Positions 27,395-56,603 of a DNA stretch of 64,000 nt are shown here, piece by piece. Location: assembly GCA_965209035.1 (NCBI GenBank), contig OZ242372.1, positions 832,001 to 896,000 of the forward strand, in the 5' to 3' direction. Made by a program: the position numbers and the translations under genes. The notes beneath the pieces were generated by a model that was not told where the DNA came from, searched no databases, and was given only the letters and a program-made list of their open reading frames with translations. Source of the DNA: Gammaproteobacteria bacterium. GTDB taxonomy: Bacteria > Pseudomonadota > Gammaproteobacteria > CBDBNL01 > JAAOII01. Position 1 is the first letter of the stretch, and each line of letters starts with the position of its first letter.

Positions 27395-27777
27395 ACCGAT
27401 TGTTTATCCTTGCTTTAGAATTTCCATTTAATATTGCAGCCACCGGAAGGTTTTTGCTCCTTCGCCGGCTGCCGACCGCATAACAATGCGTCCAAAGATG
27501 CCCGCAGATCGCGACCGGTCACCGGGATATGATTGCCGGGACGAGAATCATCCAACTGCCCGCGATAAGCGCACTTAAGATCACCGGCAAAAACATAAAA
27601 ACCCGGCGTGCATGCCACCGGATAGGCGCGTGCCACCTCTTGGGTTTCGTCATACAAATAAGGGAAAGAATAGCCCCGTTCTTTGGCTCGCTCCCTCATT
27701 TTTTCCGGCGCGTCTTCGGGAGACTTGCTCACATCATTCGCGCTAATTGCTATGCATGCCACTCCCCTTTTTTGATA
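27395..27777 (-). pseudogene. Duplicated 3' two-thirds of the redoxin gene plus 20 bp downstream (copy of 28331-28713)
   Basis: Ungapped 383-bp direct repeat at offset 936; lacks the N-terminal CNHCP motif. Confidence 0.9.
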
Positions 27778-27790
27778 AGGAAGACAGCAC

Positions 27791-28246
27791 CTATTGCAAG
27801 TCTTGTAAAAGGGTCTTGAGGGTTTTGGATGAGAAATGGCCAACCAGGGTCATTTCCGGCCTGTACATACCTTGTTTGTCTATGAAGTAAACGCTCGGCG
27901 GCCCCAGGACATCAAAGTGTGCCATGAGTTGTCGGCTGTCGGCATTATTTTTTGTTACATCCGCTTTGATCAAGTTTAACGCATTGAGATCTTCGGCCAG
28001 TTGCCGATTGCCAAATACCCTCTTTTCCAATCTCTTGCAAGTAACACACCACTTGGCTGAGTAGTAAACGAGAGTCGGTTTGCCATTTTTCCGAGATCCT
28101 TGCAGTGTGTTCCGGAAGGTTGCATAGTCGCTGACTTCGGTAAACATCGACAGAGAATCCGCTTTCGCCAAATGGTAATAACCGAAACCCACCGTCAGAG
28201 CAAGACAACAGGCGGCGACAAGGGTTGGTCTGAGTCGCATTAACAC
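27791..28246 (-). CDS. Exported thioredoxin-like protein (DsbD-gamma-like)
   Basis: Signal peptide, YSAKWCVTCK, ADVT, VLGPP. Confidence 0.85.
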   Translation of the reverse strand: MLMRLRPTLVAACCLALTVGFGYYHLAKADSLSMFTEVSDYATFRNTLQGSRKNGKPTLVYYSAKWCVTCKRLEKRVFGNRQLAEDLNALNLIKADVTKNNADSRQLMAHFDVLGPPSVYFIDKQGMYRPEMTLVGHFSSKTLKTLLQDLQ

Positions 28247-28350
28247 ACTCTTTGCGTCCTTATTATTAACCCATTAAATAGCCGCAAGAATAACATACGG
28301 GCCGCTGTCAGTGCGAATAAACGATACACAACCGATTGTTTATCCTTGCT

Positions 28351-28908
28351 TTAGAATTTCCATTTAATATTGCAGCCACCGGAAGGTTTTTGCTCCTTCG
28401 CCGGCTGCCGACCGCTTAACAATGCGTCCAAAGATGCCCGCAGATCGCGACCGGTCACCGGGATATGATTGCCGGGACGAGAATCATCCAACTGCCCGCG
28501 ATAAGCGCACTTAAGATCACCATCAAAAACATAAAAATCCGGCGTGCATGCCGCCAGATAGGCGCGTGCCACCTCTTGGGTTTCGTCATATAAATAAGGG
28601 AACGCATAGCCCCGTTCTTTGGCTCGCTCCCGCATCTTTTCCGGCGCGTCTTCGGGATGACTGCTCACATCATTCGCACTAATTGCTATGAATGCCACTC
28701 CCTGTTTTTGATATTGTTTGGCAATGTTGACCAATTCCTCTTCAATATGAATCACAAAAGGACAGTGATTACAAATAAACATCATCACCGTCGCCTGCGG
28801 CGAACAAAGTTCTGCCAGGCTCTTCGTCTCGCCGGTGACCGTATCCGGCAAAGTGAATGCGGGTGCCTTTGTCTCAAGTGGCATCATTGCGGAAAGTGTC
28901 AAACTCAT
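28351..28908 (-). CDS. Thioredoxin-family redoxin (AhpC/TSA-like)
   Basis: FICNHCPFV, AISAND, ACTPDFY, YRGQLDDSRP, GCNIKW. Confidence 0.92.
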   Translation of the reverse strand: MSLTLSAMMPLETKAPAFTLPDTVTGETKSLAELCSPQATVMMFICNHCPFVIHIEEELVNIAKQYQKQGVAFIAISANDVSSHPEDAPEKMRERAKERGYAFPYLYDETQEVARAYLAACTPDFYVFDGDLKCAYRGQLDDSRPGNHIPVTGRDLRASLDALLSGRQPAKEQKPSGGCNIKWKF

Positions 28909-29024
28909 ACTATGTATTTTACTTTATTTTGTTTTGCTTTGCCTTGTTTTGCTTTGTTTTATAGCTTAATAAAGCAAGCCCGACTTCGGATACTTTTAGT
29001 TAAACAGAATTTCTGCGGGTACAC

Positions 29025-30278: not shown

Positions 30279-30303
30279 TAGGCCGGGTTTAATCTTAGGT
30301 TTG

Positions 30304-31512: not shown

Positions 31513-31554
31513 TGTAGTTACCTCTGTTTTTGATAAAAATAATATTAAAAATTG

Positions 31555-32228: not shown

Positions 32229-32630
32229 ATTAAGAAATAACATACATATCTTTTATTTTATGGCATCCGCTTTCAAAATCAACAGCATTGCAAGCATTCA
32301 CATCCAAACAAACGCGGATATGCATTCTTTTAGCACACCAAAATTAGGGAATTGCATACTTTGTAACCCATAAAGAAATAAGTGTCATTATTATTACATT
32401 AAATGAGAGTTGAGGAGTAATGTATGAGCATGAATACCGGTAAAGGCAAGAAAAAAGAGGGTTATTTTCTGTTCGCGGCCTTCAGAATGGAAGTTTTGGC
32501 AGATCAGATCCCCGGGCTGTTTGCCATGGATCTTGAGGCAAATGGCAAATTTTTTGAAGCGCATAGATTGTCAAGTGTATAATTCCCGGATTAAAAAGGT
32601 GTTTAATATAAGCACCGGGGACAGTTTCAA
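32229..32630 (+). pseudogene. Degenerate copy of the murB 5' region (36139-~36280) interrupted by a MITE
   Basis: atggcatccgctttcaaaatcaac..atccaaacaaacgcggatatgcattcttttagcac vs murB atgacacccgctttcaacatcaac..atccaaaccaacgcggatatgcgttcttttagcac; match resumes after 32587 with gattaaaaag. Confidence 0.8.
32347..32587. mobile_element. 241-bp MITE-like element with IS1595-type termini
   Basis: Imperfect TIR GGGAATTGCATACTT / AAGTGTATAATTCCC; same motif as the IS1595 terminus at 3066-3081. Confidence 0.6.
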
Positions 32631-32739
32631 ACTGTTTCATTCATTAATGCCAAATGGCTAATGCTCAACCCCCCACTCCAGCCCCAACCTTTAATGTCCT
32701 AATACTTACGGGACAATTTTCGGTCGTTCGGGGCGGTTT

Positions 32740-33265
32740 GAGGTTCGGTGCGAACACGGACACCGACACACAGAGTCCAAAACCGGGTGAGATCGGACAC
32801 GTCGGCATTGACCTATTTTCTCGCTTCTCGCTGGTCTGTGTCGAACCTTCCGCTGCTTCGGCCCGTTCCGCCCGGCTGTTTACCGCCATGCAAAATATAC
32901 TCGGCGTGCGGATCGAAAAAGTCCTCACCGATAATGGCAGTGATTTCGCCAAAGACTTTCACCGGGTCGTGACAGCAAACGACAGCACCCACTGGCATAC
33001 CCATACTATATTGTTTTTTGGGGAAACCGCAAATGAATGCACACTGCGAACGGTTTAATCGCACTCCCTAAAAATACCTTGGGGGAAGAGTTCGGTTGTC
33101 ATATGCGGCATCTCCTGTTTAAGGAGATGTCGGCATTCAACGCCAAGTTCATCGCATGGCTGGCTTGGTATCATCGCGAACGTCCCCACTATGCTCACAA
33201 ACAACTCTCACCGAATCCGGTTTTTACAAAGACAACAAAAGTCCGAAAATGGGTGGGAATATGCA
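32740..33265 (+). mobile_element. IS481-family transposase pseudogene, 3' half only
   Basis: HVGIDLFSR, MQNILGVRIEKVLTDNGSDFAKDFHR and the 3' end are highly similar to 52786-53230; frameshifted. Confidence 0.9.
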
Positions 33266-33373
33266 TGATTTTGAAAATTAAAGTTATAATATTTGAAAAT
33301 TAAAGTTATAGTAATAGTTGAGTGATGTCTCAAAAAAATTAATATTAATCATAATAGAAAACAATAGAAAATA

Positions 33374-35611
33374 ATGAATAATCTACACTTTTTTCCTGCG
33401 CGGCCGGCGAAAGAAATGTGCCGCGAACAAAGAGGCACGATATCTGTGCGTCTTCTTAATAATACCTTTAATGTCTTTAAGGCTTTTCCCGAACCCAATA
33501 GGGCACGACGGATGCGCATACCGGCTCGTTTTTACGGTCTGCTGCTAGCGGGTATGTTCGGTTTGGTCCTGACAGGTTGTGGCGGCAGCGGCGGAGGTGG
33601 CGATGACCGCACGCCTCAGAATCCCCTGGCTGCTTCCAATATCAAAGCCGCGGCATCCGGCAATAATATCACCGTGAGTTGGACGAATCCCAACCTGGAG
33701 AATATCACCGGTTTCAATATCAAGTGGGTCAATGTTGATAATAATGCCGATAACGGCACAGAGGAACTTGATTCTGACGAAGCGAATGTTACGGCGGGTG
33801 CCAGTAATACGGACACCATTACGGGTCTTAACTATGACGCCACCTATGAGATCACAGTTGCGGTGCTTTATCGGAATGGCACATCCGTGATATCCGTGGA
33901 TTCGGTTCCGGTTAGAGAAACGATCGGGATGGATCCTGCCACCAATCCGCCAGACGGCAGCACCCCCACTCTGCCGGCTGTTTCCAATATCCAAACCGCA
34001 GTTAGCGGGAATAATATTACCGTGAGTTGGACCAATCCAAACCGGGATAATATCGATGGGTTCAACATTGCTTGGTTCAATGTTGATGATGATGCCGATG
34101 ACGGCACAGAGGAATTCAATCCTCCGGAAGCGAATGTTTCTGCCGGTGCCAAGGATAATACATACCTCATTACGGGTCTCACCTATTCTGCGACCTATAG
34201 CATCACAGTTGCGGTGCGTTCTGCGGATCAAGAACCCGTGGTTTCGGATCCGGTTCAAGACACAATCGGACCGGATCCGGAGGGCGATGATGATAACGAT
34301 GGTGTGGTGAATAGGGAAGATTTGGACTATGACGGTGACGGCTTAATCGAGATTCACAATTTGGATCAACTGGCCCTGCTGCGCGATGACCTAAATGGCG
34401 ATGGGACAGATGATGATCGTATTGACGCGATTGACGCCGTAGGTTCTATGGGCTGCCCGGTTGAAGGTGACGGCGGCTGTATGGGTTATGAACTGAGCCG
34501 CTCGTTGAATTTTAGCGATGCGGCTTCCTATGCCGAGGGCGGCGGCAACCAAACTATCTGGACAACCGGCAGCGGCTGGACACCGATCGGCTCCTGCAGT
34601 AGTGGAACGGATTGTACAAGATATACGGGGATTTTTGAAGGGAACAACCACAACATCGTCGGACTGTTGATTGGGCGTAGATCAGAAGTCGGAGTCGGGT
34701 TCGGCGGGTTGTTCGCTGCCCTCAATGGCACAATTCGCAATCTGCGCTTGTTGGATGCAAGTGTCACCGGTGATGACAATACCGGTTTGTTAGTTGGGGC
34801 TGCCGACAACGCCAGGCTGGAAAACATTTTGGTTTCAGGAAGAGTTAGTAGCAGCGACAGCACAGGAGCTCTCGCCGGCCGTGCCCCGAATGCCATGGTC
34901 AGCCAAGTGATCGTTAAAGATAGCACAATAAATGGAGGGAGCGGTATAGGCGGATTAATAGGATCCGGCGACAATGTCACTATTAGTCGCTCTTATATAA
35001 CCGGCAGCAACCTAGTAAGCAACGGTGTTAGTGCCGGCGGATTAATAGGAACGGGCCAGAGGGTCATTATTGTGCAGTCTTATGTAACCGGCAGCCGCAT
35101 ATCCAGCGATGGTTCCGGCGTGGGCGGATTAATAGGAATGGGCATCGCATCGATCATTGAGCGCTCTTATGTGGCTGATACGAGTGTAACATCTCTCGAT
35201 GTCTCCGTAGGCGGATTAATAGGATTCGGCAGATCTGCAACTATTAGTTTCTCTTATGTGGTCGGTGGCAGCGTATCCGGTTCTGGAGAAGTAGGCGGAT
35301 TAAGAGGCTTTGGCATTTCTTCGGTAAATGCGTCTTATTGGAACACGACCACCACAGGCCGGGCGGGCAGCGGCGAAAGCAAAACCGCAGAGGAATTGCA
35401 AATGCCCACCGACTTCACGGGGGCAGACAATATCTACAATCTCTGGGGTAACTTCTGGTGCAACCCGGACACCGGTGAGGAAATAGAAAGTCCTTCCCAG
35501 CCGCCTGGCGATTTCGTCCGTGTCTGGAATCTTGGCACTGACGAGGAATACCCGGTCTTGAATTGTGTAGTCGGCGGCCTGGAACCCCAAGGCAGGGCAC
35601 CAACACCCTAA
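33374..35611 (+). CDS. Surface lipoprotein: 2x FN3-like, Asp-rich, GLUG-like repeats (probable start ATG 33512)
   Basis: LVLTGC lipobox, duplicated SGNNITVSWTNPN unit, DYDGDGLIEIHNLDQLALLRDDL, GGLIG repeats, WGNFWCNPDTGEEIE. Confidence 0.85.
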   Translation: MNNLHFFPARPAKEMCREQRGTISVRLLNNTFNVFKAFPEPNRARRMRIPARFYGLLLAGMFGLVLTGCGGSGGGGDDRTPQNPLAASNIKAAASGNNITVSWTNPNLENITGFNIKWVNVDNNADNGTEELDSDEANVTAGASNTDTITGLNYDATYEITVAVLYRNGTSVISVDSVPVRETIGMDPATNPPDGSTPTLPAVSNIQTAVSGNNITVSWTNPNRDNIDGFNIAWFNVDDDADDGTEEFNPPEANVSAGAKDNTYLITGLTYSATYSITVAVRSADQEPVVSDPVQDTIGPDPEGDDDNDGVVNREDLDYDGDGLIEIHNLDQLALLRDDLNGDGTDDDRIDAIDAVGSMGCPVEGDGGCMGYELSRSLNFSDAASYAEGGGNQTIWTTGSGWTPIGSCSSGTDCTRYTGIFEGNNHNIVGLLIGRRSEVGVGFGGLFAALNGTIRNLRLLDASVTGDDNTGLLVGAADNARLENILVSGRVSSSDSTGALAGRAPNAMVSQVIVKDSTINGGSGIGGLIGSGDNVTISRSYITGSNLVSNGVSAGGLIGTGQRVIIVQSYVTGSRISSDGSGVGGLIGMGIASIIERSYVADTSVTSLDVSVGGLIGFGRSATISFSYVVGGSVSGSGEVGGLRGFGISSVNASYWNTTTTGRAGSGESKTAEELQMPTDFTGADNIYNLWGNFWCNPDTGEEIESPSQPPGDFVRVWNLGTDEEYPVLNCVVGGLEPQGRAPTP

Positions 35612-36175
35612 GGCGGAACACCTTAAGGCAGAAGGTCTTAAGGCGGCCTGCAGGGACGGGCTGGATGCCCTTTCCCTACCGCAACAATTTAAGCAGGTTG
35701 GGCAATTTGAGCAATTAAAATAACGGGAGCCCTGCGGATGCTCTCCCTTGCTTTCGCCTGCTCTACACCTGCTCTACACCTGCTCTACACCTGCTATAGA
35801 TGCTGCGTTCATTCGCTAAAAATACATCCGTTTGAGGTTGCATTTGTTGTCATTTAATGAATGTGTGGGATCTCCAAAGAACTTTGGAGTGCGGGTGATC
35901 GCCCGGCTGCGCAGATGCGAAAGATACGCAAGATTCGGAAACTTCTTTATCCCTTATCCTTTAAAGGAAGCAATATGGCCCCACCTGTTTTTTTAGAATA
36001 TGCCCGGCAAGTACTTGGAAAGCACTTGGAATATTATCCGCCCGCAGATCCAACCGCGGGAATCACCGGAACTGCCGAGTCTTCTTTATAAATCTTGCCG
36101 AAGTTAAATGATGAAGCCAAGTGATACGGGCAATGATGATTAAGAATTAACATCCGCATTTTTCGTTTCTTTTAT

Positions 36176-37225
36176 GTGATGACACCCGCTTTCAACATCA
36201 ACAACCTTCGTATCCAAACCAACGCGGATATGCGTTCTTTTAGCACGCTCAGATTAAAAAGCACGGGCGCGGCTGTTTTGTCTGTCACAGATCTGCGTCA
36301 GATCCCGCCGGCAATTCAATATGCCCGCGCCCGGAAACTCAAGGTGGTGCCTCTTGGCGAAGGCAGCAATGTGGTCCTGCCCGTTTTTTGGAAGGTTCTC
36401 TGCCTGCGTATTCAACTTCGGGGAATCAAAAAAATACGAGAAACCGCCGACGCGGTGCATATCCGGGTGGCGGCCGGCGAAAAATGGCATGACCTGGTGA
36501 GATACTGCACCGACAAAGAATGGTTCGGTTTGGAGAACCTGGCATTAATTCCGGGTTCTTGCGGGGCCGCCCCCATCCAAAATATCGGCGCCTACGGCAG
36601 CGAGATTAAAGAATTTCTGACACGCGTGCATCTGATCAAAAGACAGGACGGGACAAGCAAAATTGTCCGGGCGGCCGAATGCGATCTGCAATACCGGACA
36701 AGTTGCTTCAAAAGATCCCGGGCGGAAGCATACATCGTTACAGCCATTGAACTGAAACTCAGCAAAACCCCCAACATCAATCTTGGTTACCAAGAACTGC
36801 AAAAGAGATTACAGGATCTGGGAATTGACAGCCCCCGACCGCGCGATCTGTTCAATGCCGTCTGCCACTTAAGAACAGCCAAACTGCCTTCAACCGAGGT
36901 ACTCGGCAATGTCGGCAGTTTTTTTCAGAATCCAACGGTGTCGACAAGCCGCTTTCGTGAAATAGCGGCCGTCTATCCGAGCGTTAAGGGATACCAAGTA
37001 TCTCCCGCCCGAACTCGCATCGCGGCCGCATCCTTGCTTGAAGTGTGCGGTTGGAAAGGGTTTCGCGCGGGAGACATCGGCGTTTACGAAAAACATGCCC
37101 TGTGCCTGGTGAACTACGGGAATGCCGACCAAAAAATGATCACAGACCTTGCCGAAAAAATGCGCGCCGATGTTCGCAACAGATTCGCGATCCCTCTGGA
37201 GATTGAACCGCGCGTGTATGCTTAA
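36176..37225 (+). CDS. murB: UDP-N-acetylenolpyruvoylglucosamine reductase
   Basis: LGEGSNV, GLENLALIPGSCGAAPIQNIGAYG, GNVGSFFQNP, HALCLVN, LEIEP. Confidence 0.96.
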   Translation: MMTPAFNINNLRIQTNADMRSFSTLRLKSTGAAVLSVTDLRQIPPAIQYARARKLKVVPLGEGSNVVLPVFWKVLCLRIQLRGIKKIRETADAVHIRVAAGEKWHDLVRYCTDKEWFGLENLALIPGSCGAAPIQNIGAYGSEIKEFLTRVHLIKRQDGTSKIVRAAECDLQYRTSCFKRSRAEAYIVTAIELKLSKTPNINLGYQELQKRLQDLGIDSPRPRDLFNAVCHLRTAKLPSTEVLGNVGSFFQNPTVSTSRFREIAAVYPSVKGYQVSPARTRIAAASLLEVCGWKGFRAGDIGVYEKHALCLVNYGNADQKMITDLAEKMRADVRNRFAIPLEIEPRVYA

Positions 37226-37316
37226 AAATGACCGCCACGATAAGAAAGAGATACGGATGACAGAGATCCGCTCAATGATTAAATGATTAAACGATTAATT
37301 GTCACAAGGTCAAGAG

Positions 37317-37325
37317 TGCTATAAT
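37317..37325 (+). promoter_or_regulatory. Extended -10 element just before ATG 37332 (candidate leaderless transcript)
   Basis: TGcTATAAT followed by 6 nt and then ATG. Confidence 0.45.
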
Positions 37326-37331
37326 ATAAGC

Positions 37332-37595
37332 ATGACAGAAAATAAAAAAGAACTTTGGCAAAAAGAAGTAGACAAAAACTACAGTGTATTTTTGAAAGAG
37401 CTACCCGGATTACTAAGATCGCATCCGGATAAGTATTTGATTATGCACAAAGGGAAGCAAGTTGGCATCTTTGATACCGCGGAGGATGCTTATCAGACTG
37501 CGGAACTTCTTTATAAAAATAATGAGCCGTATTCTATCCAAAAAATTACGGGTGAACATATAAGCTTAGGGTGGCAGGGTCATGCCCTCTTTTAG
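37332..37595 (+). CDS. Small hypothetical protein (DUF5678-like)
   Basis: NY..F..ELP.LL..HPDKY.IMH..K.VGIFDT.EDAY; AT-rich; overlaps the next gene. Confidence 0.65.
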   Translation: MTENKKELWQKEVDKNYSVFLKELPGLLRSHPDKYLIMHKGKQVGIFDTAEDAYQTAELLYKNNEPYSIQKITGEHISLGWQGHALF

Positions 37596-38037
37596 TGTAA
37601 CTCTAAATGTCAGAAGTGAATTTCTTTGTCAAGTTCAATTAGTAAAAGAAGATAAATCTGTTTCCAATTCACCCGAGCACTTAAATATTGACCTAAATCG
37701 GTTACAGACTTACACTGCTTTAATAGACACAGGAGCAAGTATAACATCTGTTTCGGCAAAAGTGGCTCAAGATCTGTCTTTAATTCCGATCTCAAGAATT
37801 CCGATAAATGGTGCCGGCGGACAAGTTCTTACCAATGCTTATATCATTCATTTGTGTCTACCCATAGCCGTTCATAAAAATAACAAAAATCAAGTTGTAG
37901 TTAATCGCAATTTTTTCATAAGTACCCGAGTTTGTGAATTTGTAGGACCTTCACACTTTGATGTGATCCTTGGCATGGATATTTTGAAACAAGGAGTTTT
38001 TCAATATGCCAATGGCATATTTACTTTCAGTTTATAG
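37582..38037 (+). CDS. Retropepsin-like (clan AA) aspartyl protease
   Basis: ALIDTGAS catalytic motif and DVILGMDIL motif. Confidence 0.8.
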   Translation: MPSFSVTLNVRSEFLCQVQLVKEDKSVSNSPEHLNIDLNRLQTYTALIDTGASITSVSAKVAQDLSLIPISRIPINGAGGQVLTNAYIIHLCLPIAVHKNNKNQVVVNRNFFISTRVCEFVGPSHFDVILGMDILKQGVFQYANGIFTFSL

Positions 38038-38238
38038 CTACGATTTATCTAATTTAGAGAATGCATTACAGACGAACTGATAGCATTTTTCTTAATCGCT
38101 AAGTCTATCAGACTCCGAGCAGCCGCGCCGCAGCACAGTATCTCGGTGTCCCAATCATTCATTAATGCATCACAATAAAAAGATGTTGATAGGCCGAACC
38201 GCATCCCCGATTAAACAAAATCACGCAACTCCCGGACG

Positions 38239-38772
38239 ATGAATGAACGCATCGCGATCGGAGTCCTGACCGGGCGGGAGAGCGGCGCGCCTTCCTCTGG
38301 CACAAAAGACACGAACAGTGCCGGACAAAAGCCGGGAGGAGATGTATTAGTCTGTTGCCGGGCATCTCACCAAAAATGGGCGGGCTATTGGGAGTTCCCG
38401 GGCGGCAAGGTGCGGGCGAATGAGACCGTGTTCCAAGGGCTAAAACGCGAACTGACGGAAGAAATCGGCATTCATTGTCTTGAGGCCGAGTCCCTGGTGC
38501 GGCATACCTATCGCGGCGCGCATCAAGACCCGAATGAAAACCCAAATCCGGATCACCGGCAAAAGACTCTACTGCTTGAATTCTGGCATGTGACAAGATG
38601 GACGGGCGAACCTGTTGGAATGGAAGGGCAAGAAGTTCGGTGGCAGCCTGCGGACGAATTGGCTTCCTTGAAGTTTCTTCCCGGCAACAGACACATCATC
38701 CCCTTTTTGCGTCAATACCTGCAAAGACCGCGCACCGGGAAAACGCCGGAACCTAACTCGGCAGGATCCTAA
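38239..38772 (+). CDS. mutT: Nudix hydrolase, MutT-like
   Basis: WEFPGGKV..ETVFQGLKRELTEEIG, GEPVGMEGQ..RW. Confidence 0.8.
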   Translation: MNERIAIGVLTGRESGAPSSGTKDTNSAGQKPGGDVLVCCRASHQKWAGYWEFPGGKVRANETVFQGLKRELTEEIGIHCLEAESLVRHTYRGAHQDPNENPNPDHRQKTLLLEFWHVTRWTGEPVGMEGQEVRWQPADELASLKFLPGNRHIIPFLRQYLQRPRTGKTPEPNSAGS

Positions 38773-39050
38773 CAAATAAAAAATGTCTTCCAAAGATTCC
38801 ACAGCTTCCGCCTCGCCTCAAAGACCCAAAACTTCCCCGGCTTCCCCGGCTTCCAAAAATCCCCAAATGCATGCCGGCAGGGTGGCGGGGGAAAAACGCC
38901 GGCACCTAACTCAGTCGGATCCTAACAAATAAAAAATGTCTTCCACAGATTCCACAGCTTCCGCCTCGCCACAAAGCCCCAAAACTCTCAAAAATTCCCC
39001 GGCTTCCTCGGCTTCTAAAAAGCCCCAAATGCATACCGGCAGGATGGCGG
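38742..39050 (+). repeat. 153-bp tandem duplication of the mutT 3' end / hemE 5' start junction
   Basis: ggatcctaacaaataaaaaatgtcttcca occurs twice (ATG at 38783 and 38936). Confidence 0.9.
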
Positions 39051-40063
39051 ATGTGCTTGCCGGCCGTCGACCGGACCGCACCCCTGTCTGGATCATGCGT
39101 CAAGCCGGACGCTACCTGCCGGAATACCGAAAACTGCGCGCCAAAGTCGGCAGTTTTCAAAAACTCTATCGGCAGCATGCCGCCGAAGTCACCCTGATGC
39201 CGCTCAAACGCTATGGCTTGGACGCGGCAATTATCTTCAGCGATATTCTGATCCTGCCGGACGCGCTGGGAATGGAGGTGGAGTTCACCGAAGGTTTGGG
39301 TCCCGTCTTGCAAAAACCCGTGCGGGGCGAAAAATCCTTGGCGGATCTCCGAAGTCCGCATCCGCAGGAAGCCTACCAATATCTGGCGGAAGGAATCAAA
39401 GAAACAAAAGCGGAACTGGCGGCGGATACCTCACTCATCGGTTTTGTCGGCAGCCCTTGGACTCTTGCGGTATATGGCACCCAGGGAAGCGGTTCCAAAA
39501 ACTTCGCAATTACGCGGCGCATGCTTTACGAGCAACCGAAACTCTTGCATTCCTTACTGGAACGCCTCACCCGGGAAGTCATTCAACTCGCCTTGTTACA
39601 GATTCGCGCCGGCGCCGATGTGATACAAATTTTTGATTCATGGGCGGGGCTACTCCCCCGTCATCTCTATGCCGACTTTTCCCTGACATACACGGAGCAG
39701 ATCGTCCGGGAAATACAAGATAAAGCACCCAACACGCCGACGATCCTGTTCGCCAGAGAATGCGCGCTTCCCGTATCGGAACTTGCCAAAATCGGCATCG
39801 CAGCCCTCAGCCTGGATTGGAAAAGCGATATGGGACTGTCTTTTGCCGAAACAAAAGGAAGCGTTGTTTTACAAGGCAATTTGGACCCGGCCGCCCTGTA
39901 TGCCGACGATGCCACTTTGGAAAAAGAGGTGCGGCGGATTCTGGATGCCAAGCCGGCAAATGCCGGGCATATTTTCAACTTGGGACACGGCGTCCCGCCG
40001 GATGTCTCACCCGACAAGATCGCGCTTCTTACGGATCTCGTGCATCGCCTCGGCGAATCTTAA
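38936..40063 (+). CDS. hemE: Uroporphyrinogen decarboxylase
   Basis: PVWIMRQAGRYLPEY, AIIFSDIL, QIFDSW, LQGNLDP, IFNLGHG. Confidence 0.97.
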   Translation: MSSTDSTASASPQSPKTLKNSPASSASKKPQMHTGRMADVLAGRRPDRTPVWIMRQAGRYLPEYRKLRAKVGSFQKLYRQHAAEVTLMPLKRYGLDAAIIFSDILILPDALGMEVEFTEGLGPVLQKPVRGEKSLADLRSPHPQEAYQYLAEGIKETKAELAADTSLIGFVGSPWTLAVYGTQGSGSKNFAITRRMLYEQPKLLHSLLERLTREVIQLALLQIRAGADVIQIFDSWAGLLPRHLYADFSLTYTEQIVREIQDKAPNTPTILFARECALPVSELAKIGIAALSLDWKSDMGLSFAETKGSVVLQGNLDPAALYADDATLEKEVRRILDAKPANAGHIFNLGHGVPPDVSPDKIALLTDLVHRLGES

Positions 40064-41066
40064 TCACACCAAGCCGGCAAATGCCGGGGATACTTTTAAC
40101 TTGGGACACGGGATATAAGCCCCGCCGAATGTCTTATGTCTCGCCCGACAAGATGATGCTTCTTACGGATCTCGTGCATCGCCTCGGCGAATCTTAATCA
40201 CACCAAAGACGGCTCGGCAAATCCCGCTTACGCCAAATCCTGCCAATGCTTGCGGATACGCTTTTCCAAGCCGGTAAATGCCGGGAATGTTTTTAACTTT
40301 AACTTGGGACACGGGATACAAGACCCGCCGGATGTCTTATGTCTCACCCGACAAGATTGCGTTTCTTACGGATCTCGTGCATCGCCTCGGCGAATCTTAA
40401 TCACACCAAAGACGGCTCGGCGAATCCCACTTACGCCAAATCCTGCCAATGCTTGCGGATACGCTTTTCCAAGCCGGCGGCATCCAACTTAGGGAATGTT
40501 TTTAGCTTTAACTTGGGACACGGGATATAAGCCCCGCCGAATGTCTTATGTCTCGCCCGACAAGATGATGCTTCTTACGGATCTCGTGCATCGCCTCGGC
40601 GAATCTTAATCACACCAAAGACGGCTCGGCAAATCCCGCTTACGCCAAATCCTGCCAATGCTTGCGGATACGCTTTTCCAAGCCGGTAAATGCCGGGAAT
40701 GTTTTTAACTTTAACTTGGGACACGGGATACAAGACCCGCCGGATGTCTTATGTCTCGCCCGACAAGATTGCGCTTCTTACGGATCTTGTGCATCGCCTC
40801 GGCGAATCTTAATCACACCAAAGACGGCTCGGCAAATCTCGCTTACGCCAAGTCCTGCCAATGCTTGCGGATACGCTTTTCCAAGCCGGCGGCATCCAAC
40901 TCAGGGGATGTTTTTAACTTTAACTTAGGACACGGGATACAAGCCCCGCCGGATGTCTTATGTCTCGCCCGACAAGATGATGCTTCTTACGGATCCTACG
41001 GATCTTGCACATCGCCTCGGCGAATCTTAATCACACCAAAGCCAAAGACGGCTCGGCGAATCCCGC
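40064..41066. repeat. Tandem array of hemE 3' end + intergenic + dxs 3' end units
   Basis: hemE stop context cggcgaatcttaatcacacc recurs with TAA ending at 40063, 40197, 40400, 40609, 40812, 41030. Confidence 0.95.
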
Positions 41067-44796: not shown

Positions 44797-45018
44797 TTAT
44801 TTGTCGCGATAAGTAATACGACCGCGTTGCAAATCATAAGGACTGACTTCCACTTGCACACTGTCGCCGATAAGAATGCGAATGTAGTTCTTACGCATCT
44901 TACCGGACAAGGTGGCAATGACCTCTCGCCCGTTCTCCAACCGAATGCGGAACATCGCATTGGGGAGTTTATTAACAACTTTGCCCGTAACTTGAATCAT
45001 TTCTTCTTTTTTTGGCAT
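44797..45018 (-). CDS. infA: Translation initiation factor IF-1
   Basis: [44 protein letters not shown]. Confidence 0.98.
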
Positions 45019-45031
45019 CAAACTATACGCA

Positions 45032-49542: not shown

Positions 49543-49923
49543 GAGGCAAGCAACCTTTAAAGGAGAGGGAAAGGCGAGGTAAAGAAACTTCCAAAGGAGG
49601 GGGAAGAAGCAAAAAAAGAAACTTCCAAAGGCGAGGAAACGACTCAAAACTTCCGCCCCGCCCCAATACGAACGAACAAACAGCGGCTTTTAACTAACCC
49701 AAGATGTTGTGCCCTTCTTTCTTAAGAGGCAAGCAACTTTTAAAGGAACTTCCAAAGAAGGGGGAAGGGTAGAGAAAGGGGCTTCCAAAGGAGGGGAAGA
49801 AGCAAAAAAAGAAACTTCCAAAGGAGGAGAAACGACTCAATTCAAAACTTCCGCCCCGCCCCAATACGAACGAACAAACAGCGGCTTTTAACTAACCCAA
49901 GATGTTGTGCCCTTCTTGCTTAA
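49543..49923. repeat. ~190-bp tandem duplication upstream of gltB with nested aacttccaaagg subrepeats
   Basis: gaggcaagcaac..caaaacttccgccccgccccaatacgaacgaacaaacagcggc..aactaacccaagatgttgtgcccttctt occurs twice. Confidence 0.9.
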
Positions 49924-49959
49924 ACCGACTAAACTCTTTTAAGTCGCTTTTTTGGATCC

Positions 49960-50083
49960 TTAACTTAAAACTGGCGTTGGAGCCTTGCGTCTCTTTCCAA
50001 TACGCCAAGCCCGCTCTGCCCAATGCCTGTCTGACTGAGTGCATTCCAATATGCCGGCAATGGTTGGTTGCCCGAGAACTGAA
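49960..50083 (-). pseudogene. Copy of the 3' end of the methyltransferase at 55645-55769
   Basis: taaaactggcgttgg..gcctgtctgac.gagtgcattc.aatatgccggcaatg.ttggttgcccgagaactgaa matches 5.7 kb away in direct orientation. Confidence 0.9.
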
Positions 50084-50190
50084 AATGAAGATGGTGCATC
50101 CTGTCTTGTCCTATCCTATATCAGCGATTGATTTTTTTAATGAATAAAGCGATTCCATACTGTTAATGATAAGACCGATTTCCAATGCGG

Positions 50191-50650
50191 TGTGTCGTTT
50201 CTCCCAATGCCGAGCTCTTGTTTTTTGTTGGTCTCGTTTCGCTCGATGCACGGATCTTGTTTTTTTGTTTGTCCGGTCTCACTCGATGCACGGCTCTTGT
50301 TTTTTTGTTGGTCTCATTTCGCTCGATGCACGGATCTTGTTTTCTTGTTTGTGTCGTTTCTCACGATGCCGGGCTCTTGTTTTTTATTGGTCTCATTTCG
50401 CTCGATGCACGGTTCTTGTTTGTCCGGTCTCGCTCGATGCACGGATCTTGTTTTTTTGTTTGTCCGGTCTCGCTCGATGCACGGATCTTGTTTTCTTGTT
50501 TGTCCGATCTCACTCGATGCACGGATCTTGTTTGTCCAGTCTCACTCGATGCACGGTTCTTGTTTGTCCGGTCTCACTCGATGCACGGTTCTTGTTTTTT
50601 GTTTGTGTCGTTTCTCCCGATTCCGGACTCTTGTTTCTTGTTTGTCTCAT
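50191..50650. repeat. Tandem array of 12 units of 31-40 bp, resembling the IS481 right end
   Basis: Consensus approx TGTCCGGTCTCGCTCGATGCACGGATCTTGTTTTTTTGTT; no unique spacers. Confidence 0.9.
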
Positions 50651-50712
50651 CTCGGCCGCCAGTGTTAGCGGCAATCTAATCCGGCCGCCCGGCTTCCTCT
50701 CTACTCGCCCTG

Positions 50713-52740
50713 CTACCTGCCTTGTGCCGAGAGGCCGCCCGGCACGCAATTCAGAGCCGGGTATTGGGAACTCGTTCCTAGATCCCACCGGCGAACGAAG
50801 CCGGGAGGCTGGGAAGGATTTTCTATTTCTTCGCCCGTATTCGGATCACACCAGAAGTTATCCCAGTCGGCATAGATATTGGCCAAACCATCCGCGCCGA
50901 CGGTAGTAAAATCGGTTGGCGATTGTAATTCCAGCGTGGTCTTACCCTCACCCAAATTACGGGCACTCGCAGACTGCCCGGTGGTTTCATTATCCCAATA
51001 GGAAGCAGTGACAGTGGTGGTACTATTGGCAACACCCAGCAAGCCGCCAACTTGAAGAACGCCACCTGAAATTTGCCCGCCGGCGGCATAAGAATAGCGG
51101 ATTTGACTGCCCGGCCCATTTCCTACCAGGCCGCCAACGCGAGCTCCCGCTAAGGAAGTGATACTTCCGCCGGACACATAAGCATTGCGAATATTGGACT
51201 GCTGACCATTCCCAGCCAGTCCGCCAAGAATTGACCCGCCGACAATACTTCCGCCGGACACACCGGCATTACTAATATTGGACTGCTGACCGTTCCCAAC
51301 CAGCCCACCAAGGGGATGGGGGACACCTACTCTCGGCACTAAACCATTTATGTCGGTTACACTGACAGAGCGCATATTAGACTGTTGAGCATTCCCAACC
51401 AGGCCGCCTAATAATGATAGGGTGGTCCCGGCGTTGTGGGGCAGGAGTCGCAGACTGACAGCCGTAACCGACAGATTCTCATAGCGGGCATTGTTGCCAT
51501 AGCCGACCATACCACCCCCATAGCCGAATATGCCACTGATGTTCACATTCAAGAGATGCAGATTTTGAAGATTGCCACTGAATGCACCAAACAAGCCCAC
51601 TCCGTCCGCCTTATCATTCACCGAGACAAACAGATCGGCAAGAGTGTGATTCCGACCATCAAAGATTGTCGTATAAGCGGTGCAATCATCCGTGCCAACA
51701 CAGGAGCCGATCGGTGTCCAACCGCCGCCAGTGCGATCCGTCCAAATAGCCCGGTTGCCGCTGCCCTCGCCATAAGAATCCGCATCGCTAAAATTCAACG
51801 CGCGAGTCAATTCGTAACCATTGCAGCCGCCGTTATCGGGACAGCCGGTATTTCCCATAGCGGTAATCCCGGCAATCGGCCGATCAGCCGTCCCATTGCC
51901 ATCCAGATCGACGCGCAGCCGCGCCAAGTCATCCAAAGTGTGAATTTCTATGAGACCGTTATCATCGTCATCCACATCCGCCGCCGTCGTCGCGTTTGCC
52001 TCATCCGGAAAACCATCATCGTCATCATCCAAGTCACAGGCATCGCCGCCATCGTTCGCTCCATCCGTGTTCGTCTGGCTTGGGTTGTGCACGAGTTGGC
52101 AGTTATCCAACGGCTGACCGTCGGGGCCGACATCGTTCACACCATCATTGTCATCGTCCAAATCCTCATCGCTATCCCGACAGCCGTCATTGTCATTATC
52201 CGTGTCTGTGTCGGAAGTCCAGCCCGTGTCGCCGCGCGCACAAGCATCCGCCAGATCCTCCAGGCCGTCATTGTCATCGTCCAGATCCTCGGGGCTGTCA
52301 TCGCGGCAACCGTCGCCGTCATGGTCCGTAGACGCATCGGAAGTCCAACTCGTATCGCCGCGCGCACAAGCATCCAATTGCGTGATCCCGTCGGCGGCAA
52401 AATCATTCACGCCATCATTGTCATCGTCATCATCACAGGCATCGCCGCCGTCGGTTGCATTCATATCCGTATTATTTTGATCCGCATTCGCTAACCGCGG
52501 ACAGTTATCCGCCGCATCCGCAATGCCGTCCCCATCCGTGTCTGCTTGACTACCGCCGCCGTCACCACCACTGCCACCATCGCCACCATTGCTACAACCG
52601 GCGAGCAGCACCGCCGACAGGGTGATTGTCAATAAGAGTCTTAATAACATTAATAACTTTGCGCCGCTGCGCGCCGTTTGTCCGGACGCGACGGTGAAGT
52701 TGCTACTGAGAGCGTGTCCTTTAAATGTGTGCATAATCAT
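50713..52740 (-). CDS. Surface lipoprotein with TSP3-like Ca-binding repeats and GLUG-like domain
   Basis: LLAGC lipobox, DTDGDGIADAADNCP, DACDDDDDNDG repeats, GLIEIHTLDDLARLR, GGLVGNG repeats, WDNFWCDPNTGEEIE. Confidence 0.88.
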   Translation of the reverse strand: MIMHTFKGHALSSNFTVASGQTARSGAKLLMLLRLLLTITLSAVLLAGCSNGGDGGSGGDGGGSQADTDGDGIADAADNCPRLANADQNNTDMNATDGGDACDDDDDNDGVNDFAADGITQLDACARGDTSWTSDASTDHDGDGCRDDSPEDLDDDNDGLEDLADACARGDTGWTSDTDTDNDNDGCRDSDEDLDDDNDGVNDVGPDGQPLDNCQLVHNPSQTNTDGANDGGDACDLDDDDDGFPDEANATTAADVDDDDNGLIEIHTLDDLARLRVDLDGNGTADRPIAGITAMGNTGCPDNGGCNGYELTRALNFSDADSYGEGSGNRAIWTDRTGGGWTPIGSCVGTDDCTAYTTIFDGRNHTLADLFVSVNDKADGVGLFGAFSGNLQNLHLLNVNISGIFGYGGGMVGYGNNARYENLSVTAVSLRLLPHNAGTTLSLLGGLVGNAQQSNMRSVSVTDINGLVPRVGVPHPLGGLVGNGQQSNISNAGVSGGSIVGGSILGGLAGNGQQSNIRNAYVSGGSITSLAGARVGGLVGNGPGSQIRYSYAAGGQISGGVLQVGGLLGVANSTTTVTASYWDNETTGQSASARNLGEGKTTLELQSPTDFTTVGADGLANIYADWDNFWCDPNTGEEIENPSQPPGFVRRWDLGTSSQYPALNCVPGGLSAQGR

Positions 52741-52746
52741 TATTTG

Positions 52747-53870
52747 CTAATAGTTTACCATATTTCTGTATGATCCCACTTGTATTGTATGGTCCCACCC
52801 ATTTCTGGACTTTTGTTGTTTTTGCAAAAATTGGATCGGCGAGAGTTGTTTGAGAGCATAATGGGGACGTTCCAGATTATACCAAGCCAACCACTCGATG
52901 AGTTTGGCGTTGAATGCCGGCATATCCTTAACCAAGAGATGCCGCATATGACAACCGAACTCTTCCCAGAGAGTGCGATTAAACCGTTCGCAGTGTGCAT
53001 TCATTTGCGGTTTCCTTGGATAAGTATACCAGTGGGTGCTGCCGTTTGCGGTCACGATCCGGTGAAAGTCTTTGGCGAACTCACTGCCATTATCGGTGAG
53101 GACTTTTTCGATCCGAGTGCCGAGTATGTTTTGCATGGCGGTAAAGAGCCGGGCGGAACTGGCCGAAGCAGCCGAGGTATCGACATGGACTAGCGCGATG
53201 CGGGAAAATAGATCAATGCCGACATGCCAATAAAAGCGCCGGCCATCGACGATGCGGACGAGCGTATCAAAGGCAACACATTCACCTCTCCGGCCCGCAA
53301 CAAAGCAGATGTCCTTGCGCTCGCGAGGAGCACCTTGCCGCGGGTTCTTCTGCTCGGTCAGCGATGACTGGTGCCGCATCTTACCCGGTGCATCAGCGAT
53401 GATGCGGGCAATGGTTGACCGGCTGGGTGCCGGCAGCCCCTGCTGCTGGCACCATTCGGGTAACAAGCAGACCAGTTTATTGGGACCGATATTCGGTCGC
53501 TCTTGTCGCCAAGACCGGATCTTGTCAATCAGTGCCGGTGGCCAGGTGTTGGACCGCTTGGGCTGATACCCATAGTTGTTCGCCAGTTCATCGACCCCGC
53601 CTTCACGGAAACGCCGCTGCCACTCGTAGAATGTAGCACGACTGATCCCGGCATGATCCAGCGCCGCCGCGACACCATGTTTGCGCGCGAACGCTAAGGT
53701 GTCCAGTTTGATTTTGGTGGTTTTAGACATGTTTGAATATTTGTTTGCTAAAACCACCATTTTATTGAAACCGCGCACGCGATAACCAATGTAGCGTAAA
53801 CGTGTTCCTCTCATTTCCAATGTGCAGTCCGGCTGCCCTCACAAACCGTACCGTCTCGCCAGCGGATACA
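52747..53870 (-). mobile_element. IS481-family element with intact DDE transposase (ATG 53814; right end ...GGGTGGGACCATACA at 52786)
   Basis: HTH ISRATFYEWQRRF, FDT, IDLFSR, TDNGSEF, PQMNAHCERFNRT, WYNLERPH; left end uncertain (53852-53870). Confidence 0.92.
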
Positions 53871-54085
53871 CCTAGACAGTTTTATCAACAACAAGCCTCC
53901 GCTGTCTGCGGCGGTGAGAGCAAAACAGCTATCCGTCCTTCTTGCCCGTTTCATTCATCTAGCTCCACATACCGAAGACCCGTTGCCGGATCTATTTTCG
54001 ACCCGTCCGACAGAACCTCCGGCTGCTTGATCTGAGGACGCACAATACCAAACTCAGAGTCCAGAACCTTTATGAGACTATGCAT

Positions 54086-54128
54086 TGTATGATCCCACCC
54101 ATTTCCGGACTTTTGTTGTTTTTGTAAA
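54086..54128 (-). mobile_element. Isolated IS481 right-end remnant
   Basis: tgtatgatcccacccatttccggacttttgttgtttttg is nearly identical to 52786-52824. Confidence 0.85.
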
Positions 54129-54405
54129 CGCGTTATTTTGGGCAACAGCCGGATGGGGCGGTCTTTGTTTCGGCTTGTTTGTCATCCTCATCCTATTTGA
54201 TGCCGAGTCCGGCAAGACAAAAGGGGCGATAGCATCCGGTTCGGCACTTTCGGTGTTTGCACAAAAACCGATTGGAATCATATCATCAAGATCCTTTACT
54301 TTCACATACCATAGACTTGTTTTCGGATTGATGTGCTCCGACCCGAGATCGGTTAGGAAAAAATGTGCCGAATCTTGCCGACAGGATGCGGGCAGAAACA
54401 GGGAT

Positions 54406-55425
54406 ATGAGTATAATGCCGTATATGGTAAAGGATCTCTTTGGCGGCCCATCGGATCATCCCGAGAATCAAACTTCAACCGGCAGCAGGAACAATACTTT
54501 GAGTTGCAGTGCCGCTGAGATCTTAAATCTCAGTGCCGAGTTACTGAAATTAAAAGCCCCGGCTGCTCGCGATGATTTGGATAATAAAGTGATATGCCAA
54601 GACTTTTTTGATGCCGTTTCTTATTTACCCGCGGCGTTTGTCGATCTGCTGATTTTAGATCCGCCATATAATTTGACGAAGAATTATAATGGGAATGTTT
54701 TTTCGGCTAAAAAATATTCGGAGTATGAGAGTTGGTTTGAAAAAATGATTGTCCCGCTTAAACCGCTGCTTAAAAAAACCGCATCTGTGTATGTCTGTGC
54801 GGATTGGCGCACATCCGTCATTATAGCCCCGATACTGAGCAAGCATTTTAAGGTGCAGAACCGCATTACTTGGGAAAGGGAAAAGGGGCGAGGAGCGGAA
54901 AGAAATTGGAAAAATAACCTGGAAGATATTTGGTTTTGCACTGTCGATAGCAAGGATTATTATTACAATGCCGCAGCGGTAAAAATTAAGAAAAGAGTGG
55001 TCGCCCCTTATAAGAAAAATGGTCAACCCAGAGATTGGCAAGAACAAAACGGAAAAAATTTTAGGTTGACATATCATTCAAATATATGGACCGATATCAC
55101 CATTCCTTTCTTCTCTATGCGGGAGAACACACCACACCCAACGCAAAAGTCTGAAAAATTGTTTGCGAAATTAATGCTGGCGAGTAGTAAAGAAAATGAT
55201 ATGGTTTTTGATCCCTTTGGCGGCAGCGGCACCGCCGCTGTGGTGGCAAAAAAATTAAACCGCAGGTATTTATTAATAGAAAATAATCGAGAATATTGTT
55301 GTTGGGGATTAAAAAGACTAAGGCTTTCCACCATGAATAAAAGAATACAAGGGTTTACAGGCGGAGTTTTTTGGGAGAGGAATACCTTATCCGAACAAAC
55401 TAAAATGCTTAAATCAGTCGTATGA
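54406..55425 (+). CDS. Site-specific DNA methyltransferase (beta-class order)
   Basis: DPPY precedes HPTQK and DPFGGSGT. Confidence 0.9.
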   Translation: MSIMPYMVKDLFGGPSDHPENQTSTGSRNNTLSCSAAEILNLSAELLKLKAPAARDDLDNKVICQDFFDAVSYLPAAFVDLLILDPPYNLTKNYNGNVFSAKKYSEYESWFEKMIVPLKPLLKKTASVYVCADWRTSVIIAPILSKHFKVQNRITWEREKGRGAERNWKNNLEDIWFCTVDSKDYYYNAAAVKIKKRVVAPYKKNGQPRDWQEQNGKNFRLTYHSNIWTDITIPFFSMRENTPHPTQKSEKLFAKLMLASSKENDMVFDPFGGSGTAAVVAKKLNRRYLLIENNREYCCWGLKRLRLSTMNKRIQGFTGGVFWERNTLSEQTKMLKSVV

Positions 55426-55640
55426 AGCCTGCATTTTTTTATGAAAAGAAAAGTGCTACCGTTGCCAAGAGAATTAAAGATTCTATTAATAAGCACGAAG
55501 CATTTTTAACGAAAGACCCCCCCATAGTCCCGGGGCAGTCGGGGACTCTGTGCAAGGCCTTATTGAAACAGAATTTTCAACTCTTGCCAAAGAATGGATT
55601 GCATCCTATGGCATCAAGTTTTGCCGGGAGATTTCTTTGG
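55422..55640 (+). pseudogene. Probable truncated, frameshifted restriction endonuclease partner
   Basis: ATGA-coupled to the MTase; MKPAFFYE..EAFLTKD, apparent shift at a C-run to SPGAVGDSVQGLIE, then cut at the end of the convergent gene; the family call is inference. Confidence 0.4.
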
Positions 55641-55649
55641 GTTGTTAAC

Positions 55650-56603
55650 CTAAAACTGGCGTTGGCTCCTTGCGCCTCTTTCCAATACGCCAAAGCCCGC
55701 TTTGCCCAAGGCCTGTCTGACCGAGTGCATTCTAATATGCCGGCAATGATTGGTTGCCCGAGAACTGAACTTGAGCCAATTCGTGTTGCCCAGTGTTTTT
55801 AGGATTTTTTGTTTGTCTTTTTTTAAGATTAATCCGTAGCCGGAACCATACTTAACCTCTTCAAAGTCGGTAACGATGGTGATATCGTCGTTGTAAAAAG
55901 AAGAGGAGATATAACAATCGTAAGTGCCTAGCTTATCCAGCCCGCATAGCCTGGCGGGAGACGAACAAACGGTAAATATTTCCGCATACTCGCTGACATC
56001 GTAATCTTCAAAATTGTGTTTGCCATACCCTCGCTTCCAAACTTGAAAAACCGTATTGATACTGACTCTTTTATTGACATCCGGGATATAAAAACAATCT
56101 CCCTTCAACTCCTTGGTGTGCAAAAGTTGCCCGTTTAATACTCTCAGCATATTGGTTCCTTTGCCGTTGGTATAAAAAGACATCGGCAAAATAAAGCCCA
56201 CATATTCGCTAAACAATAAGGCTCTGTTGATAAACGCCAAAGCATAAGCGCCTCTTATTCCAAACGGAGGATTGCCTATCGTGATGTACTTTTTTGAAGG
56301 ATCTGCCGGATACCACTTCAAAAAGTCCGCCTTATTAACATAATCTTTTCGGGGCAAAATGTCTATTGCCACCCTCCTTCCTTCGGGGAGTAAATCATAA
56401 AAACAACCGTCGCCGGCACTGGGGTCTATAAAAGTAAAGCCATGCAGGTCTGCCGGGACGGATTTTGTAAACAACTCAAAGCATTCCTCGGCAATCATCT
56501 TGTCCGTAAAAAAACTATCTTCCGGCAGTTTTTTGTTTACCGCATAAAAAGGAAGTTCCGTTATTTCTTGCGTGTTCCGCAATCCCTTCCAAGCGCTACT
56601 CAT
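55650..56603 (-). CDS. SAM-dependent DNA methyltransferase (gamma-class order)
   Basis: FIDPSAGDG motif I followed by IGNPPFG motif IV. Confidence 0.8.
   Translation of the reverse strand: MSSAWKGLRNTQEITELPFYAVNKKLPEDSFFTDKMIAEECFELFTKSVPADLHGFTFIDPSAGDGCFYDLLPEGRRVAIDILPRKDYVNKADFLKWYPADPSKKYITIGNPPFGIRGAYALAFINRALLFSEYVGFILPMSFYTNGKGTNMLRVLNGQLLHTKELKGDCFYIPDVNKRVSINTVFQVWKRGYGKHNFEDYDVSEYAEIFTVCSSPARLCGLDKLGTYDCYISSSFYNDDITIVTDFEEVKYGSGYGLILKKDKQKILKTLGNTNWLKFSSRATNHCRHIRMHSVRQALGKAGFGVLERGARSQRQF

Follow-up and report, generated by a model that had tools for sequence, protein, structure and literature searches.

How does accessory DNA come to lie in gene junctions that leave almost no room for it, and why is it framed there by long copies of the neighbouring gene's own end? 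The question is raised by a 64,000-nt stretch of a gammaproteobacterial genome (contig OZ242372.1, positions 832,001 to 896,000; hereafter the window, in whose coordinates all positions are given), which has 50% G+C and housekeeping genes of proteobacterial type. At three places an inserted segment, here called cargo, is enclosed by two direct copies of the terminus of a resident gene: a thioredoxin-like gene by the 3' end of a redoxin gene (case 1), an IS481 remnant with an FN3/GLUG lipoprotein gene by the 5' end of murB (case 2), and a lipoprotein/IS481/methyltransferase segment by the 3' end of a Type II methyltransferase gene (case 3). The explanation we favour, to which we give an even chance, is that each structure goes back to a single illegitimate event belonging to the class known as 'insertion with long target duplication'.

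The repeats were detected by self-blastn of the window and by pairwise alignment of each repeat pair, and the local alignment score of each pair was compared with 200 shuffles each. Scores of 680, 85 and 202 for cases 1, 2 and 3, respectively, against shuffle maxima of 27–29 bear out the claim of an earlier note on this DNA that long repeats were copied here from the neighbouring gene terminus. The lengths given there were close for case 1 (383 against 387 bp) and case 3 (~124 against 137 bp), and too long for case 2 (~150 against 88–108 bp). All three structures have the same anatomy (Table 1). The repeat covers a translation start or stop while the target gene stays intact, reaching 23 nt past the stop in case 1, from 37 nt before to 71 nt into the gene in case 2 and 17 nt past the stop in case 3. 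One copy, termed attached, is continuous with the intact gene, and the other, termed detached, lies beyond the cargo and is continuous with the gene's old neighbour. In each case the cargo occupies the joint precisely: both copies are complete, and no split or leftover piece of the repeat lies beside it.

Table 1. Coordinates of the three cargo-bearing structures and of the cargo-free duplications in the window.
Feature	Positions	Strand	Remarks
Case 1, detached copy of redoxin 3' end, decaying	27391–27777	−	95.4% identical to attached copy
Cargo 1	27778–28327	−	550 bp; single complete thioredoxin-like gene at 27791–28246
Case 1, attached copy	28328–28713	−	Last 363 nt of redoxin + 23 nt past stop
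Redoxin (AhpC/TSA-like), intact, case 1 target	28351–28908	−	Pfam AhpC-TSA 4.1e-18; full-length alignment with 16 homologues
Case 2, detached copy of murB 5' end	32229–32336	+	37 nt upstream + ~24–27 codons, 9-nt in-frame gap
Cargo 2	32337–36138	+	3.8 kb; IS481 remnant and FN3/GLUG lipoprotein gene, flanked by two segments of unknown origin
Cargo 2, first segment	from 32337	+	461 bp of unknown origin; precedes IS481 remnant
IS481 remnant	32798–33266		Cargo 2; 5'-truncated, frameshifted
FN3/GLUG lipoprotein gene	33374–35611	+	Cargo 2
Cargo 2, last segment	up to 36138	+	527 bp of unknown origin; after lipoprotein gene
Case 2, attached copy	36139–36246	+	Continuous with murB (36176–37225, +)
Nudix 3'/hemE 5' junction, tandem duplication	38737–38888 and 38889–39050	+	152 + 162 bp, 86%; no cargo
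Convergent hemE 3'/dxs 3' junction, array	39948–41122		~5 copies; no cargo
infA 3'/dxs 5' junction, array	42891–44958	−	392 bp × 4.7 copies and a separate 170-bp duplication; no cargo
infA (presumably IF-1), intact	44797–45021	−	74 codons as listed; between gltB and dxs, 10 nt after gltB stop
Non-coding direct repeats upstream of gltB	49559–49923		138 bp, 93%, spacing ~195 bp; adjoins case 3 detached copy
Case 3, detached copy of Type II methyltransferase 3' end	49948–50083	−	89.8% identical to attached copy; blastx residues 279–304
Cargo 3	50084–55632		5.5 kb; array, lipoprotein, IS481 transposase, solo IS481 end, N6_N4 methyltransferase
Tandem array	50182–50654		Cargo 3; 40/32-bp units
TSP3/GLUG lipoprotein gene	50713–52740	−	Cargo 3
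IS481-family transposase gene, intact	52747–53820	−	Cargo 3
Solo IS481 end	54085–54128	−	Cargo 3
N6_N4 DNA methyltransferase gene	54085–55425	+	Cargo 3
Case 3, attached copy	55633–55769	−	3' end of Type II methyltransferase gene 55650–56603

In case 1 the 387-bp repeat is identical in 370 of 388 alignment columns (E = 5e-176), with a longest perfect run of 105 bp, and its detached copy adjoins the old neighbour, a BON-domain gene, from which the redoxin gene would have been ancestrally separated by a spacer of 39 nt. The detached copy has decayed. Both copies were aligned with 16 homologues picked from 120 listed; nine residues differ between them, six at variable columns and three at columns conserved in all other sequences, and at all three of these near-invariant columns it is the detached copy that carries the odd residue (A119V, D124G, D129A). 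The 18 alignment columns at which the copies differ include coding differences spread about evenly over codon positions 1, 2 and 3, and a compensated one-base shift is present between them. By the Nei-Gojobori method, 6.5 synonymous and 12.5 non-synonymous differences separate the copies, a non-synonymous to synonymous ratio (pN/pS) of 0.56, about that expected from one neutral and one constrained lineage. Small as these numbers are, the odd residues at conserved columns and the ratio together indicate a decaying pseudogene copied from the resident gene, and the detached copy does not look like a functional terminus imported from another lineage. In a protein search with its open reading frame (ORF), which is already stored in the database as a 115-aa protein, the window's own two proteins came first, followed by proteins of 64–71% identity among the 120 matches listed. 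The cargo itself encodes a predicted secreted thioredoxin-like protein with a signal peptide, a WCVTC motif and the Pfam Thioredoxin_7 domain, which resembles the gamma domain of DsbD (positions 449–572 of the NCBIfam DsbD model, E = 6.7e-28). We considered a captured 3' fragment of dsbD, which is ruled out by the gene's own ribosome-binding-like site, signal peptide and CxxC motif.

The ~108-bp repeat of case 2, made of the first 71 nt of murB and the 37 nt that precede the gene, is identical in 86 of 117 columns (73.5%), with a blastn core of 88 bp at 79.5% (E = 1.4e-7) and a longest perfect run of 13 bp. Blastx matches its detached copy, which is continuous with the old neighbour ompA, to MurB residues 2–27 (E = 3e-4). 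In case 3, the last 120 nt of a minus-strand gene and the 17 nt downstream form a 137-bp repeat with 123 of 137 columns identical (89.8%, E = 2.9e-44) and a longest perfect run of 20 bp, whose detached copy is continuous with the upstream region of gltB. Divergence of the repeat pairs thus amounts to 5% in case 1, 10% in case 3 and 20–26% in case 2. The gene owning the case 3 repeat matches the Type II methyltransferase model of PADLOC over nearly its whole length (7.8e-51), as its earlier designation as a methyltransferase had it, and also resembles methyltransferase clusters of a protein atlas; Pfam and NCBIfam scans of this gene gave no match. A 126-aa plus-strand ORF (55422–55802) was discarded as owner of the repeat, as it has no family and low recognition while the gene on the opposite strand is a clear methyltransferase. 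Directly downstream of the lipoprotein gene in this cargo lies the strongly T-rich tandem array, ~12 units of 40 or 32 bp with 75–85% matches and periods that are not multiples of three; it matched no Rfam family and, in any frame, no Pfam family.

Flanking direct repeats that restore the 3' end of a target gene are also known from site-specific genomic islands, which depend on an integrase and on a fixed att site. Neither an integrase nor a tRNA (transfer RNA) target was found in this DNA, and one of the three targets is a 5' end. Pfam profile scans of 55 window ORFs and of 71 stop-to-stop frames at the island borders returned no integrase or recombinase family, in keeping with the earlier note, and only DDE transposases, of IS481 and of an IS1595 remnant. 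No tRNA or transfer-messenger RNA lies at any border; the sole tRNA of the window, a tRNA-Met at 8296–8368, was also its only Rfam match. By eye, no motif is shared by the six breakpoints or the six cargo ends, and the three repeat sequences are mutually unrelated. A site-specific element using the gene termini as att sites, with its integrase encoded elsewhere, would therefore need three integrases for repeats of 108–387 bp. We regard such an element, or else an artefact from misjoined strain variants, as very unlikely. The latter has in its favour that our assessment is built on the assembled window sequence; the copies differ, however, by changes of pseudogene type, and the arrays described below hold up to five mutually diverged units, unlike collapsed strain variants. 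The structures do not have the form of DDE transposons either, since no inverted repeat links the ends of any cargo and the repeats are, as previously stated, far longer than the target duplications of insertion sequences (IS). A diversity-generating retroelement was likewise rejected, the differences being of all base types and Pfam scans of the window ORFs giving no reverse transcriptase family.

The three structures are accompanied, as the earlier note says, by cargo-free tandem duplications of gene junctions; we count four. The array at the convergent hemE/dxs junction consists of units of 134, 203, 209 and 218 bp with a higher-order period of 412 bp and has at least three different joints, one of them at a 10-nt microhomology common to hemE and dxs, while each 392-bp unit at the infA/dxs junction combines dxs codons 1–56 with a frameshifted infA fragment. 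Several different joints per locus with microhomologies of 0 to 10 nt argue for repeated illegitimate events and not for a site-specific system. The ancestral spacers would have measured 0 nt (infA/dxs), ~10 nt (nudix/hemE) and 36 nt (hemE/dxs). When all 27 intergenic regions were compared by blastx with 45 window proteins, copies of gene fragments appeared in six regions, all between 27 and 51 kb. In length, the repeats with cargo (387, 108 and 137 bp) are comparable to the units without it (134–392 bp).

The abundance of cargo-free junction duplications in the same stretch, together with IS481 debris that speaks for repeated insertions in these regions, would suit the neutral landing pad proposed in the earlier note, on which a junction was first duplicated without cargo and accessory DNA later entered the spare neutral DNA. 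This is not supported by the position of the cargo. Random insertion would usually split one copy, and we roughly estimate the chance of landing at the joint in 100–400 bp of spare DNA at ~0.01–0.04 per case, yet the joint was hit three times out of three. Furthermore, no insert is present in any of the four cargo-free arrays, and the cargo sites have exactly two copies each, whereas copy number exceeds two, or several joints occur, at three of the four sites without cargo. We therefore consider the landing pad unlikely. Cargo at the joint in every case and arrays free of inserts favour instead a single event that combines insertion with copying of the target, in agreement with the second alternative of the earlier note, a mechanism that leaves the gene terminus whole.

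In such an event, break or replication repair would take up DNA without ends of its own at a tightly packed gene junction, and a stretch of 100–400 bp of the resident target that includes the start or stop codon would be copied onto both sides of the insert. The copy joined to the gene would keep the gene whole, while the copy beyond the cargo would be dead DNA, free to decay. The anatomy, the place of the cargo at the joint and the decay of the detached copy are observed directly; that one event made each structure, what kind of break was involved and where the cargo came from are our inference. The same process without captured DNA might have produced the four cargo-free junction duplications, some of which unequal crossing-over would later have enlarged into arrays. 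Only junction-spanning events would come through purifying selection, because the genes lie 0–40 nt apart and a short duplication or insertion within one gene would destroy it.

A single RecA-dependent crossover between the chromosome and a circle carrying cargo plus a copy of the terminus (Campbell-type integration) would also duplicate the homologous stretch and yield exactly the order repeat, cargo, repeat, and both recA and recX are encoded in the window. Such a circle presupposes, however, that cargo and terminus had already been joined elsewhere, the ~108–137 bp of homology are short for cases 2 and 3, and the differences between the copies resemble neutral decay of one copy and not divergence of two functional alleles, which makes this route improbable in our eyes. 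RecA-mediated excision through the repeats, suggested in the earlier note, is realistic for case 1 with its long perfect run and not for cases 2 and 3 with runs of 13 and 20 bp.

Alternatively, the cargo may have lain beside the terminus from the outset, the unit of terminus and cargo being tandemly duplicated and the second cargo lost by homologous recombination with a cargo-less allele. Tandem duplication followed by loss of one cargo copy has been drawn as a rival pathway for the same pattern in a paper that extends the idea of such insertions to 'other DNAs' (PMC3457768); tandem duplication is clearly frequent in this stretch, and in case 1 the thioredoxin-like cargo is related in function to the redoxin gene beside it. 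On the other hand, at least two steps and a polymorphic population would be needed at each of the three sites, and self-blastn shows no trace of a second cargo copy, so that we hold this order of events to be improbable as well.

The IS481-family sequences in two of the three cargos raise the question whether the cargo entered a duplication break with the help of a transposase or its ends, or whether two nearby insertions recombined. In Pseudomonas fluorescens SBW25, a laboratory event placed IS481 at the exact joint of a new 59,943-bp tandem duplication without target site duplication; its authors suggest that the element went into the break opened as the duplication formed, and they connect this Dup-IS481-Dup arrangement to Helicobacter and Neisseria cases (PMC11708052, mBio 2024). 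Cases 2 and 3 resemble it in having an IS481-family element within the insert at a tandem duplication joint and no transposon-type target duplication, and solo IS481 ends in the window attest repeated activity. The published duplication is, however, unstable and holds the IS only, whereas the repeats here measure 108–387 bp, are old (5–26% diverged), lie off the IS and enclose other genes. IS481 neither stands alone nor abuts both copies in cases 2 and 3, being internal at 32798–33266 and about 52786–53871: the IS ends are 461 bp away from the repeat in case 2 and separated from it by the methyltransferase gene in case 3. Case 1 has no IS, and no terminal inverted repeats bound the cargo. An IS481-assisted origin of all three structures thus seems quite unlikely.

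Several points weigh against one insertion event with long target duplication per structure. The structures are seen in one genome, and the class is defined by comparison with an empty site. IS481-family sequences occur in two of the three cargos, internally and away from the repeats; the 2010 survey of the class, discussed below, left such cases out, and a transposase-assisted route may be possible for them. A gene of restriction-modification type is present in one cargo out of three, while published members of the class mostly involve genes of this type. Evidence of decay is strong for case 1 only, the repeats of cases 2 and 3 being too short, and some cargo-free joints lie at microhomologies of 7–10 nt, for which ordinary replication slippage would suffice and no break capture be needed. 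Finally, long flanking repeats are found at three of the five accessory-looking segments fully inside the window; the other two, a low-GC block at 37226–38238 and a likely restriction-modification pair at 60871–63064, have no flanking repeats above shuffle level.

To put the repeat density of the window into context, clusters of local direct repeats of at least 80 bp were counted by the same search in the window and in 80 loci of other proteobacteria (1,374,952 bases), a non-random sample of regions around dxs. Seven clusters in the 64-kb window face 11 in nine of the 80 control loci, or ~0.5 cluster per 64 kb, an excess of ~14-fold that is approximate, given that the controls are dxs surroundings. 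In a search of genome contigs with Dxs, at least 80 loci of 49–59% identity had a gene order unlike that of the window among the matches listed, and the nearest relatives by RecA are found in clusters at 95% and 86% identity. It is possible, and we suggest it tentatively, that this gammaproteobacterial lineage has unusually high activity of a single uncharacterised process of break repair or template switching, which makes both the cargo-free and the cargo-bearing duplications. If so, insertion with long target duplication would not be limited to restriction-modification genes, and would be a general integrase-independent entry route for any DNA, including lipoprotein and redox genes, that spares tightly packed operons.

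The earlier note had presented the pattern as a candidate undescribed gene-acquisition system. This does not hold, as the architecture was reportedly given its name, 'insertion with long target duplication', by Nobusato et al. in 2000 (Gene 259:99). It was surveyed by Furuta, Abe and Kobayashi in 2010, who describe genes that came in without other mobile elements and are bordered by long direct repeats whose length varies, with examples of 417/423, 384/412 and 388/397 identical bases; these repeats often reach across a start or stop codon, and the target gene is thereby spared (PMC2853133). Their criteria include restriction and modification genes in the insert (i) and flanking repeats of more than 30 bp (iii), an orphan methyltransferase is among their cargos, and they argue, as we do here, that selection keeps the events that spare the target (PMC2853133). 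The mechanism is treated in these sources as still only hypothesised (PMC2853133, PMC11708052).

The three structures work like this class and are probably members of it. As in the published cases, whose repeats range from more than 30 to ~420 bp, few-kb accessory DNA without an integrase lies between long, variable direct repeats of a resident target; the flanking repeats exceed 30 bp throughout (387, ~108 and 137 bp). The cargos of 0.55, 3.8 and 5.5 kb all stay below 20 kb, and cargo 1 is without a mobility gene, whereas an IS481 remnant is present in cargo 2 and a full copy in cargo 3. The published cases, by contrast, were set by comparison of strains with the empty site and mostly concern restriction-modification genes in naturally competent species, while here we see a thioredoxin-like gene and lipoprotein/IS481 segments in a single genome; no restriction gene was found in the cargos, and a methyltransferase gene in cargo 3 only. 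Cargo-free duplications of neighbouring junctions are not mentioned in those sections of the published accounts on which we draw. While the pattern is already described, the number of events, with and without cargo, in one 28-kb stretch is unusual: three structures of different ages stand there, in a 2.18-Mb contig, beside four duplications of the same size class that lack cargo, compared with published examples that are, in the same sources, scattered single cases mostly involving restriction-modification genes. If the pattern were genome-wide, it would provide a natural system to ask whether the capture of cargo and the duplication of the junction take place as one event, and could show how compact genomes gain genes without an integrase.

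The cargo-free arrays also invite comparison with Ehrlichia ruminantium, an alphaproteobacterium of very low coding density, whereas the window is otherwise tightly packed. Its repeats were reportedly tied to truncated gene copies by Collins et al. in 2005, and its duplications are not known to hold cargo at their joints. The likeness lies in a small genome whose tandem repeats generate gene fragments. Long-period tandem repeats fill its intergenic regions (PMC10710844).

For annotation, the dead terminus copies and the chimeric frames of the infA/dxs array form ORFs that should not be called genes. Four chimeric open frames of 127–140 aa (43198–43620, 43590–44009, 43982–44401 and 44374–44757, all on the minus strand) start with the first 56 Dxs codons and continue into infA-derived sequence; they are probably not genes, though gene callers would predict them. 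The intact infA gene nearby escaped the ORF list, whose cut-off was 80 aa; judging by the translation, we take its product to be presumably IF-1.

Three paralogous lipoproteins are encoded in the window, at 1–2244 (−) and within cargos 2 and 3, which have in common a GLUG-repeat C-terminal half of 34–46% identity and differ in variable FN3 or TSP3 N-terminal parts; each has IS481 debris next to it. The right end of IS481 lies 45–107 nt upstream of the lipoprotein gene in both islands, pointing into it, and might, judging by this position, drive the gene's expression. Two solo IS481 right ends, at 3266–3366 (+) and in cargo 3, have the same end point as the full copy. They overlap the annotated starts of purL and of the N6_N4 methyltransferase ORF, respectively, which makes these starts doubtful; both are probably placed too far upstream. 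An inverted copy of the right end was not found in the window, only two direct copies, and the left end of the IS (~53871) is therefore estimated; the element had no match in plasmids. Directly outside the right end of the full copy, a degenerate second copy of its last ~15 bases (52741–52805) hints at repeated insertion at one spot or at a subterminal repeat. An IS1595 transposase pseudogene lies at 2291–2986 (−).

As for the two accessory-looking segments without repeats, the locus at 60871–63064 (−) encodes a 414-aa EVE-domain protein that matches a Type II restriction enzyme model (5.9e-14) and overlaps a Type II methyltransferase gene, which suggests that the two likely form a restriction-modification pair. 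The block at 37226–38238, between murB and the nudix gene, has 36–38% G+C and looks foreign by its composition; it holds a 98-aa ORF of unknown family and a gene for a retropepsin-like aspartyl protease. The ribosomal protein S6 ORF (16837–17604, +) is 255 aa long with the Pfam domain on residues 5–92 only, its long C-terminal tail containing an 18-bp (6-bp) repeat at 17167–17249, and several other housekeeping ORFs also appear extended.

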